A stretch of DNA of 29,602 nucleotides from a virus (IMGVR_UViG_2740892234_000018:1-29602); one strand, 5' to 3'; counted from the first letter of the stretch, positions 4,122 through 28,989 are shown. The notes: generated by a model from the sequence alone, not told the origin. Numbers and translations are program-made.

Positions 4122-4443
4122 GAAACCAGAACATGCACACACAAAAAAACCGCTTGCCATGCCGCAATCAGTCAGGTTACATTTCCGCTGCACCTCACAA
4201 AACGGGTGCCGGGTTTCGCAGCCTGCTGACTACACAAGCGCACAACCGCGCCAGCGGTTTTTTTGTGCGTACTGTATTGCCACGTTTTTTTCGCGTCAGA
4301 ATTATGGCGGGGCGTACGGGGCCGACTTCGGTCGGGCCGGGTTCTTGTGTAGCCGGTACTGCGAACCTCGTACGTCTCGCCACCCACAGTTTCGCAGCTC
4401 TGGATGGTGAGTTTTCACAACTTACTACACAAGGGGCCACACC
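4122..4443 (+). other. Structured non-coding region (possible small RNA or leader)
   Basis: No convincing CDS. Two TTGCCA-N17-(TTACAT / AATTAT) promoter-like motifs; a 76-nt GC-rich element 4306..4381 with a 13-bp closing stem and an inner CCGAC-UUCG-GUCGG hairpin; repeated GTTTCGCAGC and ACTACACAAG motifs. Confidence 0.3.
4244..4264 (+). terminator. Rho-independent terminator-like hairpin
   Basis: AACCGC-gcca-GCGGTT perfect 6-bp stem followed by a run of seven T. Confidence 0.6.
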
Positions 4444-4674
4444 ATGGCAAACCGCAAACCACACCGCGCTATCGCGGAGCGTCGTCACATCCAGACTGAA
4501 ATCAACCGCAGACTTTCCCGCGCATCACGCGTCGCGCAAATCATGCACATCAATATGCTGCATGAGCACAGCCACGCACTATCAAACATTTATTCCGCCT
4601 CTGTTTTCAGCTATCTGGCGGATGATCTGCACGAGCTTCAACAGCTCATCCAGCAGCAAAACAAACTCCATTAA
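4444..4674 (+). CDS. Hypothetical early-region protein
   Basis: 76 aa; SD AAGGGG about 7 nt upstream. Confidence 0.5.
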   Translation: MANRKPHRAIAERRHIQTEINRRLSRASRVAQIMHINMLHEHSHALSNIYSASVFSYLADDLHELQQLIQQQNKLH

Positions 4675-4746
4675 TTCCTGTTCCGGGCCTTTCCTGCACC
4701 TTGCGGCGGGAGGCCTTCGCACATCTGTAGTAAAGAGAATTGCAGC

Positions 4747-5136
4747 ATGATTGACCGTCACGACTTCGTAAAATGGGTGCGCACACAGGACACCCGTCTG
4801 GCCCCAAAACTTCAGGCAATGTTTGATTTTTATCTCCGTGCCCGCGCCAGCCGGGCACGCACCACAAAACCGGAGAACGCAGACACCCTTTATTTCACCG
4901 TGGACGACTGTTACCGCGTAGCCTTCACGCCACAAGGTCTGGCCCTGTACACCCTGACACCACACGGCGACTCCCTGCTGGCGTATTACAACTCCCCGGC
5001 CTCCGTATTTGCGGCAATGCTGGCGCATCGTACCGCTGGCGGGTGTGCCTCGCTGAGTGAATACACCACTGAATTTAACCGCCTTTCCGTCATCTTCTCG
5101 CAGGAGTGGCAGCGCGTGACGGGATACCAGCCATGA
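4747..5136 (+). CDS. Hypothetical early-region protein upstream of gene A
   Basis: 129 aa; stop overlaps the ATG of gene A (ATGA). Confidence 0.55.
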   Translation: MIDRHDFVKWVRTQDTRLAPKLQAMFDFYLRARASRARTTKPENADTLYFTVDDCYRVAFTPQGLALYTLTPHGDSLLAYYNSPASVFAAMLAHRTAGGCASLSEYTTEFNRLSVIFSQEWQRVTGYQP

Positions 5137-8049: not shown

Positions 8050-9009
8050 ATGAAAATTTACATCGACGACGGCTCCACCAACATCAAGCTGGCATGGACT
8101 GAGAACGGCGAACGCCGCAACGCCATCAGCCCGAACAGCTTCAAGTCGGAATGGTCTGCGCCGTTCGGTGGCTCGCAGCCTGCGAACTACATGCTTGATG
8201 GCGTGCGCTATGGTTTTGATCCGGTCAGCGATCGCTTTGTCCAGACGACCGACACGCAATACCAGTACAGCGATGTGAATGTAATCGCCATTCACCACGC
8301 GCTGGTCAAATCAGGCATCACACCACAGGAGGTGGATGTGGTTGTCACCCTGCCACTGAGCGAATATTTCGACACAAACGCACAGCCGGACATGGCCAAC
8401 ATCAACCGCAAAAAAGCGAACGTTATGCGCCCGGTGGAGTACCAGAACGGTGAGGCATTCACTATCCGTAACGTGCGGGTTATGCCTGAATCCATTCCGG
8501 CTGGCTTTAAAGCACTGGCTGACATGAGTCCGTTTGAATCCCTGCTGATTGTGGATTTAGGCGGAACCACGCTGGATGTGGCAAAGGTTCAGGGACAACT
8601 GGCAGGTATCAGCCAGGTGTTTTGCGATCCACACGTAGGCGTTTCCCTGATGGCCGATGCCGTACTGTCGGTGATGGCCACTAACGGTATGCGTACCAGT
8701 CACCACATCGCCAATACCATTATCGAACATCGCCATGATGAAGCCTGGCTGCGCCAGCACATCCACAATGACGCGCATTACAACAGCCTGATGGCGGTTA
8801 TTCGTGAAAAGGAAGAAACACTGAAACAACGCGTGATCCGCGCGCTGGCGGTTTTTTCGGGTTACGGGCGGGTGATGGTTGTCGGTGGAGGGGCGGAGAT
8901 TGTGGCACCCGCTATCCGCGAAGCCTGCGGAGTTAATGCGACTTTCATCGCAGACGGGGTGCCACAGTTTGCTCTGGTTAATGGGCTGTACGCAATGGAC
9001 AAGGAGTAA
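8050..9009 (+). CDS. parM: ParM/StbA-family actin-like ATPase
   Basis: MKIYIDDGSTNIKLAW N-terminus plus SPNSF, YSDVNV, HHAL, MPESIPAG, DLGGTTLD, GGGAE and LVNG blocks, as in recalled plasmid R1 ParM. SD AAGGA upstream. Confidence 0.85.
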   Translation: MKIYIDDGSTNIKLAWTENGERRNAISPNSFKSEWSAPFGGSQPANYMLDGVRYGFDPVSDRFVQTTDTQYQYSDVNVIAIHHALVKSGITPQEVDVVVTLPLSEYFDTNAQPDMANINRKKANVMRPVEYQNGEAFTIRNVRVMPESIPAGFKALADMSPFESLLIVDLGGTTLDVAKVQGQLAGISQVFCDPHVGVSLMADAVLSVMATNGMRTSHHIANTIIEHRHDEAWLRQHIHNDAHYNSLMAVIREKEETLKQRVIRALAVFSGYGRVMVVGGGAEIVAPAIREACGVNATFIADGVPQFALVNGLYAMDKE

Positions 9010-9013
9010 ACCA

Positions 9014-9325
9014 ATGACGACACCAACCAGACGGATAAGTTACTATCTGAAGCCCGCCGCCGTCAAGAACGAAGGCGAAGCATGCGCATGGCTGGACAGC
9101 CTTACACCAGAAGCCCGCAAAAGCGGCCAACGCGTGGCTTTTCTGGCCGGGCTGGCACTTCTGAAAATGAATCCAGCAGAGGCTTACCGACTGGCTGCAT
9201 GGGCTGACGATGAGGCGTTATCAGTGACACAAACCAGGATAGAATGCCCCGCGTCACAGCCAGTATCAACCGCACAGATAACCAGTCAGATGGCCGGAAA
9301 TATCCGGGCGTTATTTCCCGAATAA
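9014..9325 (+). CDS. ParR/StbB-like small DNA-binding adaptor (putative)
   Basis: 103 aa immediately after the ParM-like gene; SD AAGGAG. RRISYYLKP...LDSLTPEAR...AFLAGLALLKMNP...IRALFPE parallels recalled ParR. Confidence 0.6.
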   Translation: MTTPTRRISYYLKPAAVKNEGEACAWLDSLTPEARKSGQRVAFLAGLALLKMNPAEAYRLAAWADDEALSVTQTRIECPASQPVSTAQITSQMAGNIRALFPE

Positions 9326-21524: not shown

Positions 21525-23483
21525 ATGAGTACCACAACACGTAAATTTAAAACCATTATCACTGATACTGGTGCCAAAAAATTAGCTCAGGCAGCCGCGC
21601 CAGATGGTAATCCTGTCCGCCTGACTCACATGGCCGTGGGCGACGGTGGCGGCACGTTGCCCACACCAGACAGTAAGCAGACCCGTCTGGTGCATGAGGT
21701 GTGGCGACATACTGTTAATCGCGTCATCCTGGACGCAACACATCAGAACCGCATTATTGCGGAGCTGGTTATTCCTCCTGAAACGGGTGGATTCTGGATC
21801 CGGGAAATTGGTGTATTTGATGAGCACGGCGATTTAATCGCGGTGGGCAATACTGCCGAAAGTTACAAACCAACCGTTGCCGAGGGGTCCGGACGTGCAC
21901 AAACATTTCGCACCATTCTGACCGTATCCAGCACTGCCACCGTGGCGCTTACCGTGGATAACACCATGGTGATGGCCACAGTGGATTACGTGAATGACAA
22001 ACTGAAAGAACATGAACAGTCACGACGTCACCCGGACGCCTCGCTGACCGCAAAAGGCTTTGTTCAACTCAGTAGCGCCACTAACAGCACGTCTGAAGCA
22101 CTGGCCGCAACGCCGAAAGCGGTCAAGACAGCCTATGACCTTGCTAACGGGAAATATACCGCTCAGGACGCCACGACGGCACGAAAAGGAATAGTCCAAC
22201 TCAGTAGCGCCACTAACAGCACGTCTGAAGCACTAGCCGCAACGCCGAAAGCGGTCAAGACAGCCTATGACCTTGCTAACGGGAAATATACCGCTCAGGA
22301 TGCCACGACGGCACGAAAAGGAATAGCCCAGCTCAGTAGCGCCACCAACAGCGATTCAGAAACGCTGGCGGCAACACCAAAGGCGGTAAAGGCAGCCTAT
22401 GACCTTGCTAACGGGAAATATACCGCACAGGACGCCACGACGGCACGAAAAGGAATAGTCCAGCTCAGTAGCGTCACTAACAGTGATTCTGAAACGCTTG
22501 CCGCGACTCCGAAAGCGGTGAAAGCCGCTAATGACAATGCAAACGGGCGTGTGCCCTCTGGACGTAAGGTTAATGGCAAATCACTAGCCAATGATGTCAA
22601 TGTTACATCGCAGGATATTTTTAACGACCAGAGTATTGAGATTGGTGCAAATCAGAATCTGGATAATTACAAAACACCGGGGCTGTACCATCAGCCATTG
22701 AATGCCAATACAAGCGCAGCGCTGAAATACCCGGAGAATTTTGCGGGTACACTGGTTGTGCTTAAAAATGCCGGGATAACACAGATTTACTATGTGTATG
22801 ACACATCCAGAAGCTATACCCGCAGCCAGTACTCAACGGGTGACTGGACACCATGGACGCCACAAGATTCATTTCCGGTAGGTGCGGCGATACCGTGGCC
22901 TTCTGATTCAGTGCCTACAGGCTATACCGTTATGCAGGGGCAGACTTTTGATAAAACAGTCTACCCTCTGCTTGCAGTCGCTTATCCGTCTGGTGTGATC
23001 CCTGATATGCGTGGCTGGACGATTAAGGGCAAACCCGCCAGTGGTCGGGCCGTATTATCTCAGGAACAGGACGGCATTAAATCACACTCCCACAGTGCCA
23101 GCGCCTCCAGTACGGACTTGGGGACAAAAACCACATCATCATTTGACTACGGCACCAAGACGTCCAGTTCATTTAACCATGGCACTAAAACCACGAATAG
23201 CGCCGGGGATCATTCACACAATATTCCTGTTGGCAACACTGGCGCAGGTAATGGTGTTTCGGCTGGTTATAACTCAGGGCTTGGCACTGGAAAAACAAGT
23301 AACGCAGGGGGGCACTCTCACACAGTAAATATTGGCGCACACACTCATACGGTAGGAATTGGCGCACACACACACTCCGTTGCGATAGGTTCACACGGGC
23401 ATACCATCACCGTTAACGCTACGGGTAACGCAGAAAACACCGTAAAAAACATCGCATTTAACTATATTGTGAGGCTTGCATGA
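21525..23483 (+). CDS. H: Tail fibre protein (P2 gpH-like N-terminus, repeat region, His-rich tip)
   Basis: N-terminus [25 protein letters not shown]...; four tandem 44-aa repeats; C-terminal HxH tip [35 protein letters not shown]...NYIVRLA. Confidence 0.9.
22060..22560 (+). repeat. Tandem 132-bp repeats inside tail fibre gene H (about 4 copies)
   Basis: Unit starts at 22065, 22197, 22329 and 22461, each encoding ...[40 protein letters not shown]. Confidence 0.85.
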
Positions 23484-24382
23484 TTACGCTCATTCTTTCT
23501 GCACCAGTAACAGAAATGGCTGAAGCATTTAAGCAGGTATTTGCAAATGCAGATAGTGTGAATATTGTCGGAAAGCCATTTGAAACAATCAGAGAATTTG
23601 ACTGCATGGTAAGTGCGGCAAATAGTTTCGGCCTGATGGATGGTGGCGTTGATGCCGCCATTACCGCATTCTTCGGTACTCAGTTACAGTCCCGCGTTCA
23701 GAATCATATTCTTCGTGAATATCTCGGCGAACAGCCTGTAGGTTCTGCATTTGTCATTGAAACGGGGCATAATCATCACCCCTGGCTGGTACATGCGCCA
23801 ACAATGCGTGTTCCGTTGACAATTGACGGAACAGACGCTGTATATAACGCAACCTGGGCCGCTCTGCTTGCCATCTTTCAGCACAATAAAAACGCAACGA
23901 CAGACATGAAAATAAAAACAGTGGTATTCCCTGCAATGGGGGCCGGATGTGGTCAGGTGCCGTTTGAAAGTGTTGCCCGACAGATGAAGCAGGCATGGGA
24001 TAACTTTAATAAAAAAACAGAATCAATTAACTGGGAATACGCACAATCTCGCCAGTCGGCAGTATTTGGCACATATGCATACTGTCCGGGTAATTCCGTT
24101 TGCCGTTATGCGGATACTAAATATATTGGATGCGGCGATTATCGGACGTGTTGCTCTCGTTCCGGGCAAATCTGTATTAACCCTGAACATCAGGCTGATG
24201 ATGTACTGATACAACATCAGGCTAATAACCGTTTTCGCCCTGGTTCGCATATACACCGGATTAATCCAGAAAATCCCGTAGGTAATGTCACCTCTGGCGC
24301 ACATAGCCACGGAAGTAGCATCGTTATTGGTACTCCTACCCATACGCTCAATAAACAATATTCTGTCTCTGATATTAAGTAG
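23480..24382 (+). CDS. Macrodomain protein with Cys/His-rich C-terminal region
   Basis: ATGA-coupled to the H stop. Three macrodomain blocks: [39 protein letters not shown] and [15 protein letters not shown]-terminal part is Cys-rich with HxH motifs (GSHIH, GAHSHG). Confidence 0.8.
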
Positions 24383-24390
24383 AGGTGAAC

Positions 24391-24594
24391 ATGGATTTCA
24401 GAATGAGTGAACAATCACGGACCATAAAAATTTATAACCTGCTGACCGGAACTAATGAATTTATTGGGGAAGGTGATGCATACATTCCACCTCATACAGG
24501 TCTGCCTGCAAACAGTACCGATATTGCACCACCAGATATTCCGGCTGGCTTCGTGGCTGTTTTCAACAGTGATGAGGCATCGTGGCATCTCGTT
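24391..24594 (+). CDS. tfa: Tail fibre assembly protein, 5' fragment truncated by gap
   Basis: [18 protein letters not shown]...DEASWHLV is nearly identical to the N-terminus of the tfa at 27580; runs into the N run. Confidence 0.75.
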
Positions 24595-24604
24595 NNNNNN
24601 NNNN
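24595..24604. other. Run of 10 N (assembly gap)
   Basis: Ten N characters; the coding frame is discontinuous across it (tfa fragment before, stf codon about 21 after). Confidence 0.95.
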
Positions 24605-27580
24605 CAGAACTGCACAATCCAGCTGAAAGCAAAACGTAACAGCACCACGGTGGTGGTGAACACGCTGGCCTCAGAAAATCCGGATGAAGCCGGGCGTTAC
24701 AGCATGGACGTTGAGTACGGTCAGTACAGCGTTATTCTGTTGGTGGAGGGATTCCCGCCGTCACATGCCGGGACCATCACCGTGTATGAAGATTCTCAAC
24801 CGGGGACGCTGAATGATTTTCTCGGTGCCATGACGGAGGATGATGCCCGTCCGGAGGCATTGCGACGTTTTGAACTGATGGTGGAAGAGGTGGCGCGTAA
24901 CGCGTCCGCGGTGGCACAGAACACGGCAGCCGCGAAGAAGTCAGCCAGTGATGCCAGCACATCAGCCCGTGAGGCGGCAACCCATGCGGCTGATGCTGCG
25001 GACTCAGCACGCGCAGCCAGCACGTCAGCCGGACAGGCCGCGTCGTCGGCTCAGTCAGCGTCTTCCAGCGCAGGAACGGCATCAACAAAGGCCACTGAAG
25101 CATCAAAAAGTGCTGCCGCTGCAGAGTCCTCAAAAAGCGCGGCGGCCACCAGTGCCGGTGCGGCAAAAACGTCAGAAACGAATGCTGCAGCGTCACAACA
25201 ATCAGCAGCCACTTCTGCATCCACCGCGACCACGAAAGCGTCAGAAGCTGCCACCTCAGCCCGGGATGCGTCGGCTTCAAAAGAGGCGGCAAAATCATCA
25301 GAAACGAGCGCAGCCTCGAGCGCCAGTAGTTCCGCTTCCTCGGCAACGGCGGCAGGCAATTCCGCGAAAGCGGCAAAAACGTCCGAGACGAACGCTAAGT
25401 CTTCTGAAACGGCAGCGGAACAGAGTGCCTCCGCAGCAGCAGACTCAAAAACAGCGGCTGCATCATCTGCCAGCGCCGCGTCAACAAGTGCCGGGCAGGC
25501 CTCAGCCAGTGCCACCGCTGCCGGAAAGTCGGCAGAAAGTGCCGCATCATCCGCTTCAACAGCCACAACGAAGGCTGGCGAAGCCACTGAACAGGCCAGC
25601 GCAGCAGCGAGTTCTGCTTCCGCAGCGAAGACATCCGAAACGAACGCGAAAGCGTCGGAAACCAGCGCAGAATCCTCAAAAACGGCTGCCGCATCGTCCG
25701 CCAGTTCGGCGGCGTCATCGGCCTCATCTGCGTCTGCTTCAAAAGATGAGGCGACCAGACAGGCGTCAGCAGCGAAGGGCAGCGCCACGACGGCATCCAC
25801 GAAGGCGACAGAGGCAGCTGGCAGTGCGACGGCGGCAGCACAGAGCAAAAGTACAGCAGAATCCGCGGCAACGCGCGCCGAGACAGCAGCAAAACGGGCA
25901 GAGGATATTGCATCCGCCGTGGCGCTTGAGGATGCGAGCACGACGAAAAAGGGGATAGTACAGCTCAGCAGTGCGATCGACAGCACTTCCGAGTCACTGG
26001 CGGCAACGCCAAAAGCCGTTAAGGCCGCGTATGACCTGGCTAACGGGAAATACACCGCACAGGATGCAACGACAGCACAGAAAGGGATAATCCAGCTAAG
26101 CAGCGCGACCAACAGCACGTCTGAAACGCTGGCGGCAACGCCAAAGGCAGTAAAAGCAGCCAATGACAATGCTGAGAAACGTCTGCAGAAAGATCAGAAC
26201 GGTGCGGATATCCCTGGCAAAGACACCTTTACGAAAAATATTGGTGCCTGCCGTGCCTTCGGTGGGTCAGTAAGCACAACAACAGGAAACTGGACGACTG
26301 CACAGTTTATCGAGTGGCTGGATTCTCAGGGAGCATTTAACCATCCATACTGGATGTGCAAGGGTTCCTGGTCTTATGGCAATAATAAAATCATTACTGA
26401 TACTGGCTGCGGTAATATTCATCTCGCCGGAGCTGTCATTGAAGTAATGGGGATAAAGTCAGCGATGACGATCCGCATTACCACTCCGACCACATCCAGC
26501 GGTGGCGGAACAACCAACGCCCAGTTTACCTATATTAATCACGGAACAGATTATTCACCTGGCTGGCGAAGGGACTATAACTCCAGAAATAAGCCAACGG
26601 CATCAGAGATCGGGGCGCTACCGTCAGGTGGAACAGCAGTATCATCAGTTAATCTGGCTTCAAAAGGTCGGGTAGCCGCGCTGACAGACAATACGCAGGG
26701 GGCAGCAGGTCTTGAGTTATACGAGGTGTATAACAACGGATATCCAACAACGTATGGAAATATCATTCACCTGAAAGGGATGACAGCCGTTGGCGAAGGT
26801 GAGTTACTCATCGGCTGGAGTGGTACAAGCGGTGCTCATGCTCCGGCATTTATTCGTTCACGACGGGATACGACCGACGCAAACTGGTCGCCGTGGGCGC
26901 AGCTTTACACCTCGGCTCATCCTCCTGCAGAGTTTTATCCAGTCGGTGCACCAATCCCGTGGCCATCAGATACCGTTCCGTCTGGTTATGCCCTGATGCA
27001 GGGGCAGACTTTTGACAAATCTGCATACCCGAAACTTGCAGCCGCTTATCCGTCAGGCCTGATCCCTGATATGCGTAGCTGGACGATTAAGGGCAAACCT
27101 GCCAGTGGTCGGGCCGTATTGTCTCAGGAACAGGACGGCATTAAATCGCACACCCACAGCGCCAGCGCATCCAGTACGGATTTGGGGACGAAAACCACAT
27201 CGTCGTTTGATTACGGCACTAAATCCACGAATAACATCGGGGCGCATACGCACAGTGTGAGCGGTACAGCCGCAAGTGCTGGAAACCATACTCATAGTGT
27301 CACAGGCGCATCAGCAGTCAGCCAGTGGTCACAAAATGGGTCAGTACATAAGGTAGTGTCTGCGGCCAGTGTGAATACAAGTGCTGCAGGAGCGCACACT
27401 CATAGTGTCAGCGGCACAGCCGCATCTGCAGGTGCACACGCACATACTGTCGGTATTGGTGCTCATACGCACTCGGTTGCGATTGGCTCACATGGACACA
27501 CCATCACCGTTAACGCTGCTGGTAACGCGGAAAACACCGTCAAAAACATCGCATTTAACTATATTGTGAGGCTTGCATAA
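24605..27580 (+). CDS. stf: Side tail fibre protein (lambdoid Stf-like), 5'-partial
   Basis: Begins in frame at ...[19 protein letters not shown]; long Ala/Ser-rich region; two repeats of the same type as in H; His-rich tip ending NYIVRLA. Closely resembles recalled phage lambda Stf. Confidence 0.85.
25950..26175 (+). repeat. Two tandem repeat units of the fibre-type 44-aa repeat inside stf
   Basis: [44 protein letters not shown] followed by [30 protein letters not shown]. Confidence 0.7.
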
Positions 27581-28014
27581 TGGCATTCAGAATGAGTGAA
27601 CAACCACGGACCATAAAAATTTATAATCTGCTGGCCGGAACTAATGAATTTATTGGTGAAGGTGATGCATATATTCCGTCTCATACAGGTCTGCCAGCAA
27701 ACAGTACCGATATTGCACCGCCGGATATTCCGGCAGGCTTCGTGGCTGTTTTCAACAGTGATGAGGCATCGTGGCATCTCGTTGAAGACCATCGGGGTAA
27801 AACGGTTTATGACGTAGCGTCAGGGGACGCGTTATTTATTTCTGAACTCGGTCCGTTACCGGAAAATGTTACCTGGTTATCGCCGGAAGGGGAGTTTCAG
27901 AAGTGGAACGGCACAGCCTGGGTGAAAGATGCAGAAGCAGAAAAACTATTCCGGATCCGGGAGGCGGAAGAAACAAAAAACAGCCTGATGCAGGTAGCCA
28001 GTGAGCATATTGCG
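27580..28014 (+). CDS. tfa: Tail fibre assembly protein (lambdoid Tfa-like), 3'-truncated by gap
   Basis: [33 protein letters not shown]... ATG overlaps the stf stop; runs into the second N run. Confidence 0.85.
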
Positions 28015-28024
28015 NNNNNNNNNN
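28015..28024. other. Run of 10 N (assembly gap)
   Basis: Ten N characters; about 120 nt before and after the gap are near-identical but not identical. Confidence 0.95.
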
Positions 28025-28025
28025 G

Positions 28026-28301
28026 TCGCCGGATGGAGAGTGTCAGAAGTGGAACGGCACATCCTGGGTGAAAGATGCAGAAGCAGAAAAACTGTTTCGG
28101 GTACAGGAGGCAGAAGAAACAAAAAACAGCCTGATGCAGGTAGCCAGTGAGCATATTGCGCCACTTCAGGATGCTGTAGATCTGGAAATCGCAACGGAGG
28201 AAGAAACCTCATTGCTGGAAGCCTGGAAAAAGTATCGGGTGTTGCTGAACCGTGTTGATACATCAACTGCACAGGATATTGAATGGCCAGCACTGCCGTA
28301 G
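28026..28301 (+). CDS. tfa: Tail fibre assembly protein, 3' fragment after gap
   Basis: In-frame continuation ...[72 protein letters not shown]... to a stop at 28301. Confidence 0.75.
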
Positions 28302-28398: not shown

Positions 28399-28989
28399 TT
28401 ATATGTCAGGTGTCTGAAGTTTTGCTTTGGCTCTTAAAATGGTTTGCCGCGAGGTTTTGAATTCCCGGGCAATGGCACTTATACTTACACCTGACTTAAT
28501 CCGTTCGAATACCACCTGTTTCTGTTCTTCATTTAACACAGGTGGTCGACCAAAACGTTTCCCTGCGCCCCGGGCTCTTACTATCCCGGAATGAGTGCGT
28601 TCAAGTAAAAGGTCTCGTTCAAATTCAGCGACTGCTGAAATTACTTGCATCATCATTTTTCCTGTTGGACTGGTCAGGTCAATGCCCCCCAATGCTAAGC
28701 AATGCACTCTGATACCTGTTTCGGTCAGTTGTTCCACTGTTTTCCTGATATCCATTGCATTACAACCAAGGCGATCCAGTTTTGTCACAATCAATTGATC
28801 ACCACATTTCAGGCGAGCAAGCAACCGGTTAAAACCAGGACGCTCACTGGTTGCTGCTGAGCCGCTAATGTGTTCTTCGATTATTTGCTGAGGTTTGATT
28901 TTAAAACCTGCACTTTCGATTTCCCGGCGTTGATTTTCGGTGGTCTGATCCAGCGTTGATATCCGACAGTAAGCAAAAATTCGAGACAT
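28399..28989 (-). CDS. Serine recombinase (resolvase/invertase family)
   Basis: 196 aa; N-terminal catalytic block YCRISTLDQ (active-site Ser), [10 protein letters not shown], and a C-terminal HTH ([19 protein letters not shown]). Confidence 0.85.

Follow-up and report, generated by a model that had tools for sequence, protein, structure and literature searches.

In phage P2, the tail fibre gene H is followed directly by the chaperone gene G. The window analyzed here, a 29,602-nucleotide stretch of viral DNA, carries between these two a gene for a predicted macrodomain protein, a type of domain central to ADP-ribose-based virus-host conflicts, and this raises the question of how such a gene (here, the macro gene) came to lie between a fibre and its chaperone and what its product might do there.

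First, we find an intact ORF at 23480..24382 (+), which starts with ATG, encodes 300 aa followed by a stop and adjoins the 3' end of H, in agreement with the original prediction of a 300-aa gene placed between H and G and translationally coupled to H. The P2-type fibre gene itself (21525..23483, +; 652 aa) encodes a Phage_tail_fib N-terminal domain (Pfam, 6e-54), Phage_fiber_2 repeats (3e-79) and a Collar domain (1e-8), and its last ~60 codons make up a tip with GxHxH repeats at aa 595, 604, 613 and 622, at a spacing of 9. The TGA stop of H and the ATG of the macro gene share an ATGA overlap (sequence GCATGATT), with GAGG located 7 nt 5' of the ATG, and the P2 G-like chaperone gene tfa begins at 24391, 8 bases past the macro gene stop and behind its own AGAGGTGA, a start that agrees with the PGAP annotation in locus L001. 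We also considered an H-macro fusion generated by frameshifting at the ATGA and rejected it: a slippery heptamer is absent at ...CTTGCATGATT, which makes termination-reinitiation the simpler reading. Rfam and tRNA scans of the macro gene region found nothing, and the search for a promoter or terminator of its own returned 3 promoter-like sites and 1 terminator-like site, compared with 2.9 and 1.5 expected by chance, none of them at the borders of the gene. The GC content of the macro gene is ~45%, as in the tip/tfa cassette, and that of the baseplate genes is 55-62%.

The scaffold contains two 10-N joins, at 24595-24604 and 28015-28024, both within tfa repeats or genes. The first of these ends the 5' part of tfa (24391..24594, +), which matches PHROG 105 'tail fiber assembly' (1.4e-29), and because the joins interrupt tfa genes, the sequence past 24594 belongs to another contig. 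Bases 1-24594 represent a P2-like prophage with integrase, cox, gene A, capsid and baseplate genes, and H; from base 24605 onward, the sequence comes from another fibre locus, of lambdoid type, that includes a Pin-type invertase. An assembly chimera, a concern that had been raised together with the original prediction, can be rejected for the macro ORF, since contig 1-24594 contains all of it and three complete E. coli genomes carry genes that match it at 100% identity over 903 nt.

Second, we demonstrate that the macro gene is dispensable for the assembly of the H-type fibre tip and moves with the fibre-tip/tfa cassette. The window provides an internal control, as alignments show that the 3' end of a second fibre gene, which ends at 27580, runs straight into tfa with no macro gene in between (27430..27730, +). 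This second fibre is 63% identical to H over the last ~220 residues and nearly identical over the last ~60, which confirms that the macro gene is an insertion relative to the H-G order. Across 5426 complete E. coli genomes, the macro gene is present in 128, under the PGAP name 'macro domain-containing protein'. Counted at a query coverage of at least 80%, the tip-macro junction occurs in 125 of these 5426 genomes and the direct tip-tfa junction in 3852 (7191 places); about 98% of fibre-tip/tfa cassettes are without the gene, and its prevalence is about 2%. The flanks, namely the fibre 3' end and the tfa 5' end, show 95-99% identity in thousands of genomes. The sequences with and without the gene diverge right after ...GAGGCTTGCAT and match again from the tfa start codon, ATGG(A/C)(T/A)TTCAGAATGAGTGAACAA, and the natural junction without the macro gene reads ...GCATAATGG....

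The gene keeps its position in unrelated phage backbones. When 60 E. coli loci were sampled evenly down the ranking, it was found between a fibre gene and tfa in 59, the remaining match being truncated. The fibre-macro-tfa order occurs with the ATGA overlap in P2-like elements (E110019, phage Chuche and SEN4/SEN5), and order and overlap recur in lambdoid siphoviruses (strain 06-00048 and Gifsy-1, whose gene STM2588.1n is already annotated 'contains pfam01661, Macro'), in a P1-like phage-plasmid and in an Erwinia prophage. The protein of the window is 100% identical to WP_000631340.1, a 'macro domain-containing protein' from E. coli E110019. Overall, the family comprises about 1700 clusters in Escherichia, Salmonella, Erwinia, Citrobacter and Enterobacter, the gene occurs in medically relevant lineages such as O157:H7, ST131 and Salmonella Gifsy-1, and N-terminally truncated remnants of the gene are common in Salmonella. 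Acetyltransferase genes and other cargo adjoin the macro gene in some loci. Of the properties expected of a moron, the gene displays presence/absence polymorphism at a precise site but has no promoter and terminator of its own.

Third, our analyses show that the core of the protein (aa 1-195; 23480..24064, +) is a macrodomain of the Macro2-type (Ymx7-like) clade. Residues 44-169 match PF01661 over profile positions 1-118 of 118 (E=9.6e-19; 67.9 bits against a Pfam cutoff of 22), and aa 1-271 match PHROG 2613 over positions 1-272 of 274 (E=4.5e-146). The three macrodomain motifs that had been predicted in the N-terminal two thirds are invariant in the close family, namely NSFGxMDGGxD (N48..D58), H105-APTMR and the loop G154-A-G-C-G158. 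The core has the three-layer alpha/beta/alpha macro fold, and the AF2 model reached a pLDDT of 82.5 with a 124-sequence alignment and 52.8 with 16 close homologs. Three methods place yeast Ymx7 (YMR087W; PDB 1njr, 1txz and 1ty8) closest to the macro core, ahead of the MacroD, ALC1/TARG1/DarG, macroH2A and PARG clades, but at only about 20% identity. Ymx7 residues N80/D90/H145, which we take to be the catalytic residues proposed for that protein (Kumaran et al., 2005) and which are found at these positions in the 1njr sequence, correspond in the alignment to N48, D58 and H105, all of them invariant in 16 close members. Within the wider family, N48 is conserved in 123/124 sequences, D58 in 122/124 and H105 in 88/124. 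To our knowledge, Ymx7 is the only Macro2-type macrodomain that has been studied, and we know of no phage role for the clade. Ymx7 is a eukaryotic cellular protein that lacks the C-terminal Cys4/GxHxH extension of the phage protein and functions as an ADP-ribose-1''-monophosphatase; for Macro2/Ymx7, phosphatase activity but no de-MARylation has been reported (PMC6397177). Judging from its sequence, the phage protein is probably catalytically active on an ADP-ribose derivative.

The core has stand-alone homologs of ~195-215 aa in Cyanobacteria, Chloroflexi, Planctomycetes and other groups, together with eukaryotic fusions (1296 cluster representatives at E<1e-10). These homologs are 45-55% identical to the core over aa 1-195, those of cyanobacteria and Chloroflexi ~50% with the ADPR site intact, and since this site is shared with cytoplasmic enzymes, an ADPR-type ligand is indicated. 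For the same reason, namely that the ADPR pocket is kept in common with cytoplasmic homologs, we set aside the idea of a surface-glycan or lipid A phosphatase. The stand-alone homologs are uncharacterized and differ from the phage protein in having no C-terminal module, no phage or fibre link and no conserved neighbourhood; the genes next to 57 of them are mixed (FemAB-like, EF-G-like, nucleoside phosphorylase-like and others) and give no clue to a substrate. Some jumbo-phage homologs named 'tail protein' lie outside any tail context, and this name is probably an annotation transfer. The MacroD/YmdB O-acetyl-ADP-ribose deacetylases have Pfam Macro in common with the phage protein, and the PRK00431 models (NCBIfam) match it at 4e-14 to 1e-2. 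Across E. coli, Salmonella and Erwinia, the dN/dS of the core stays at 0.07-0.20 (Nei-Gojobori) even though synonymous divergence is saturated. The Cys4 segment has a value of about 0.1-0.2 and the tail one of 0.3-0.65, and we conclude that core, segment and tail are each coding sequence under constraint, which is weakest in the tail.

Fourth, the core is followed by a C-terminal module that was absent from about 100 stand-alone homologs of ~200 aa. The phage-family-specific Cys4 segment (aa 196-242; 24065..24205, +) has the pattern AYCPx4Cx16Cx6CIxxxHQxDD, and its cysteines C202, C208, C225 and C232 do not vary among 16 diverse members. These four cysteines probably bind Zn. AF2 predicts a beta-hairpin at 211-225 (pLDDT 62-78), and searches of the segment against Pfam and the PDB gave no match. 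It is followed by a variable GxHxH tail (aa 243-300; 24206..24379, +) with GSHIH at 255, GAHSH at 273 and a third motif that has degenerated to TPTHT in the window's allele; family members carry 2-4 such repeats, and AF2 models the tail of the monomer at a pLDDT of <50. In 50 distinct family tails, we counted 96 HxH motifs, whereas 2000 shuffles that preserved composition gave 32 +/- 4.9 and at most 49; the modal spacing is 9 residues, equal to that in the H and Stf tips of the window. The window's allele taken alone has 2 HxH and is not significantly enriched (P=0.075).

The tail therefore invites comparison with the HxH repeats of fibre tips (T4 gp37 needle, lambda Stf and P2 H; PF03335), which have the same motif, the same spacing of 9 and a variable number of repeats. 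In the trimeric gp37 tip of T4, HxH motifs are reported to coordinate iron (PMC11705849, with reference to the crystal structure). Fibres are, however, without a Cys4 segment, and the macro tail is without the conserved C-terminal end of fibres. Local BLASTP between tail and cognate fibre tip gave weak similarity (E=0.01 for H here, 0.002 in Gifsy-1), and PF03335 Phage_fiber matched 6/15 tails weakly and without significance (best E=0.34). The likeness to fibre tips is thus real at the level of the motif but does not establish family membership, and the Cys-rich, HxH-bearing C-terminus predicted originally is confirmed. A tail profile found no match in the PDB, and everything retrieved with this profile or with the C-terminal 110 aa was a fragment from the phage macro family itself. 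In phages, tblastn of the tail detected nothing beyond members of the family, one 3' remnant (SEN34) and matches in Aeromonas phages that are due to chance. Within the sensitivity of these tools, the module therefore seems limited to the phage macro family.

We tentatively favor the view that the gene encodes a late-expressed cargo enzyme that acts on soluble ADP-ribose derivatives in counter-defence, a reading we regard as quite possible rather than probable. The macro gene would be an optional cargo of a horizontally mobile cassette of fibre tip and Tfa, and could have spread among unrelated phages by homologous recombination via the conserved fibre 3' end and tfa 5' end. Its Macro2-type core, fused to the phage-specific Cys4 and GxHxH module, would bind and hydrolyze an ADP-ribose derivative with a substituent at the 1''/2'' position of the ribose. 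Translation occurs by coupling to the fibre gene, so that the protein would be made late, together with fibre and Tfa, and the enzyme would act in the cytoplasm of the producing cell. Its targets would be soluble NAD+/ADP-ribose-derived products or signals of an immunity that is switched on late by structural proteins, and the fibre-like tail could mediate metal-dependent oligomerization or docking on the fibre/Tfa complex. Catalysis, the substrate, the part played in counter-defence and the use of the tail are inferences on our part.

This proposal agrees, by analogy, with published work. Phage Macro, NADAR and Nudix proteins encoded among morphogenesis genes have been proposed to counter soluble ADPr derivatives (PMC9503650), and NADase defences are reported to sense tail proteins (PMC10981675); the link of Thoeris and NADases to the macro gene is an analogy drawn from Pseudomonas N4-like phages. 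Iyer, Burroughs, Anantharaman and Aravind (2022; PMC9503650) propose packaging in the head and injection and describe no fibre/tfa slot, with 0 mentions of 'tail fiber'. A protein attached to the fibre would not enter the cell by injection. An enzyme confined to the cytoplasm would need neither a fibre-like tail nor a fixed slot. The fixed slot can be accounted for without functional coupling, since flanks that are 95-99% identical act as recombination arms, and the benefit of the gene appears conditional, because remnants are common in Salmonella and 98% of cassettes do without it.

It is possible, if unlikely, that the protein is instead a subunit displayed on the virion, with a tail that co-assembles with the GxHxH needle of the fibre, with Tfa and metal, or forms a trimer of its own there, and which works outside the cell, either as an adhesin or by enzymatic action on a surface phospho-sugar. 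Its fixed slot between tip and tfa with coupling on both sides, the GxHxH motif and 9-residue spacing that tail and tip share, the restriction of the module to the fibre-linked family and the iron-coordinating HxH of gp37 (PMC11705849) would all fit such a role, and the four invariant cysteines could form disulfides outside the cell. Yet the core is ~50% identical to cytoplasmic enzymes and has an intact ADPR site. We know of no ADPR-type ligand on enterobacterial surfaces. Moreover, 98% of the same tips assemble without the macro gene, the tail is the least constrained part and has lost one motif in the window's allele, it matches PF03335 without significance (best E=0.34), and a fibre-bound protein would remain outside the cell at infection.

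The original prediction had pointed to reversal of DarT-type ADP-ribosylation, and a de-ADP-ribosylase that acts on DarT-modified DNA or ART-modified proteins or RNA, in the manner of an orphan antitoxin, would share the macro fold with the DarG macrodomain and with AdfM (PhiKZ gp104), a phage-encoded counter-defence hydrolase (PMC13309987). We consider this quite unlikely. DarG and AdfM belong to an ALC1/TARG1-like clade, unlike the phage macro protein, whose nearest clade, Macro2/Ymx7, is that of a phosphatase without de-MARylation (PMC6397177). DarG HMMs matched at E=0.007-0.08 over about 40 residues: antitoxin_DarG (NCBIfam) scored 12.1 bits against a cutoff of 250, and the PADLOC DarG model gave E=0.0072 over 39 residues. 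BLASTP against AdfM found no similarity (E=0.71), and AdfM acts on DNA in the phage nucleus, without a link to fibres. An adjacent DarT toxin or a DarT-binding C-terminal domain was absent from all loci examined, where the neighbours are the fibre gene and tfa. DarT blocks early DNA replication, and late, fibre-coupled expression would be badly timed against it. The DarG-type part of the prediction is thus not borne out, and the profile searches suggested alongside it led to PF01661 and the Ymx7 type.

We give similarly little credence to the view that the gene is a hitchhiker of little or no benefit, or a lysogenic-conversion gene that serves the host and is held in place by recombination-prone flanks. 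The 95-99% identity of these flanks, the prevalence of about 2%, the frequent remnants in Salmonella and the presence of neighbouring cargo genes (acetyltransferases) in some loci are in line with this view, but a dN/dS of 0.07-0.2 held across E. coli, Salmonella and Erwinia is difficult to reconcile with it, as are the precisely conserved start overlap and downstream coupling and the lack of a separate promoter that could drive the gene in a lysogen. A further version of the fibre hypothesis, in which the protein would be an accessory subunit with a Tfa-folded tail locked to the needle by a shared metal, so that the macrodomain sits at the distal tip as an extracellular adhesin or enzyme on a phosphorylated envelope sugar or, by marking the fibre/Tfa complex, disarms a fibre-sensing NAD+/ADPR defence at its trigger, seems to us decidedly improbable. 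Finally, a non-enzymatic assembly factor, either an additional chaperone or a helper that supplies the HxH tip with metal, would suit the slot between fibre and chaperone, the co-expression and the Cys/His-rich, metal-binding-looking tail, but is highly improbable given the near-identical tips in 3852 genomes and in the second fibre of the window that do without the gene, and the strong purifying selection on ADPR-site residues that a scaffold would not need.

RefSeq, the Gifsy-1 record and PHROGs already contain the sequence of the protein and its annotation as a macrodomain, with PHROG 2613 listed as of unknown function, and the idea that phage macrodomains counter ADPR-based immunity is likewise published. 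Our literature search found no study of the fibre-slot macro gene family, and in the literature searched there was no account of the Ymx7/Macro2 assignment, of the Cys4 and GxHxH tail, or of a fibre-tfa slot that is shared by four phage backbones with natural presence and absence of the gene. The role of the gene is a directly testable question, because natural phages with and without it have otherwise near-identical junctions.

Taken together, fibre tip and chaperone, which enterobacterial phages exchange more frequently than any other module, here incorporate a strongly conserved Macro2 member. Should the gene act against a defence triggered by fibres or other late proteins, trigger and antidote would be encoded side by side. 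Should its product reside on the fibre, no macrodomain would have been seen on the surface of a virion before, and if neither holds, the macro gene would be a well-defined passenger that owes its spread to the conserved flanks of the cassette.

Two runs of ten Ns, at 24595-24604 and 28015-28024, mark scaffold joins in the window, and each falls within a repeat of tfa, the gene for the tail-fibre-assembly chaperone. Beyond the join at 24595-24604 the sequence resumes within the part of a lambdoid Stf fibre gene that encodes the N-terminal domain, rather than in the remainder of tfa. The window is therefore a concatenation of segments from two or more prophages, and the true downstream region of the P2-like prophage is absent from it.

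The P2-like prophage contains an actin-like segregation gene of the ParM/StbA type (Pfam StbA_N, 5e-82; ParM C-terminal domain, 7e-69), with a StbB-like plasmid-stability gene behind it (together 8050-9325). The pair occupies the interval that separates replication gene A from the portal gene, the usual hot spot for cargo. Integrated P2-type phages do not usually carry such a pair, which could point to a plasmid-like stage or to a borrowed module. In protein P0004 (463 aa, from a Logan assembly), a ParM part is predicted to be fused to a macrodomain part that is 100% identical to the window protein; because the two genes joined there stand 14 kb apart in the window prophage, P0004 is most likely an artefact of assembly or gene calling.

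The same prophage carries adjacent Rfam matches to the Hfq-binding sRNA isrK (64 bits) and to C4 antisense RNA (83 bits) at 4190-4387, which overlap the 5' part of an ORF (4133-4750) assigned by PHROGs as a transcriptional regulator. This region looks like a c4/ant-like immunity element of the P1/P7 type within a P2-like prophage. A further Rfam match, to family IS009 (224 bits, 28069-28267), covers the 3' end of the second of the tfa genes. What Rfam lists as an RNA family thus corresponds here to conserved coding sequence of tfa; adjoining it, on the minus strand at 28399-28989, is the gene for a Pin-like DNA invertase.

In the P2-like locus L001 (13534-14106) and the P1-like locus L005 (6493-7038), both of which carry the macro gene, an acetyltransferase gene directly follows tfa on the opposite strand, and in phage SEN34 (L007, 2739-3830) an O-acetyltransferase gene lies beside a leftover of the macro gene's 3' end. 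The acetyltransferase gene is absent from Gifsy-1 and from L006, another macro-gene locus. Acetyltransferase and macro gene may form a larger, co-travelling cargo block, or the site may simply be the known cargo hot spot.

Jumbo-phage homologues of the Macro2 type, including that of Pseudomonas phage Noxifer (L089, 3983-4630), are named "tail protein", although no tail genes adjoin them. This label, which is likely misleading, probably reached them by annotation transfer from the fibre-linked family of enterobacterial phages. Finally, Salmonella harbours widespread ORFs of 101-126 aa that comprise just the end of the macrodomain and the Cys4/GxHxH part, for example P0277, which is listed for 102 blocks of the collection. 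On the Salmonella chromosome (L090-L092, 4001-4354), such truncated ORFs have a MAPEG-family gene on one side and the aspartyl-tRNA synthetase gene on the other, surroundings that look like a decayed prophage remnant. Truncation thus often removes the macro gene and leaves its 3' end behind.
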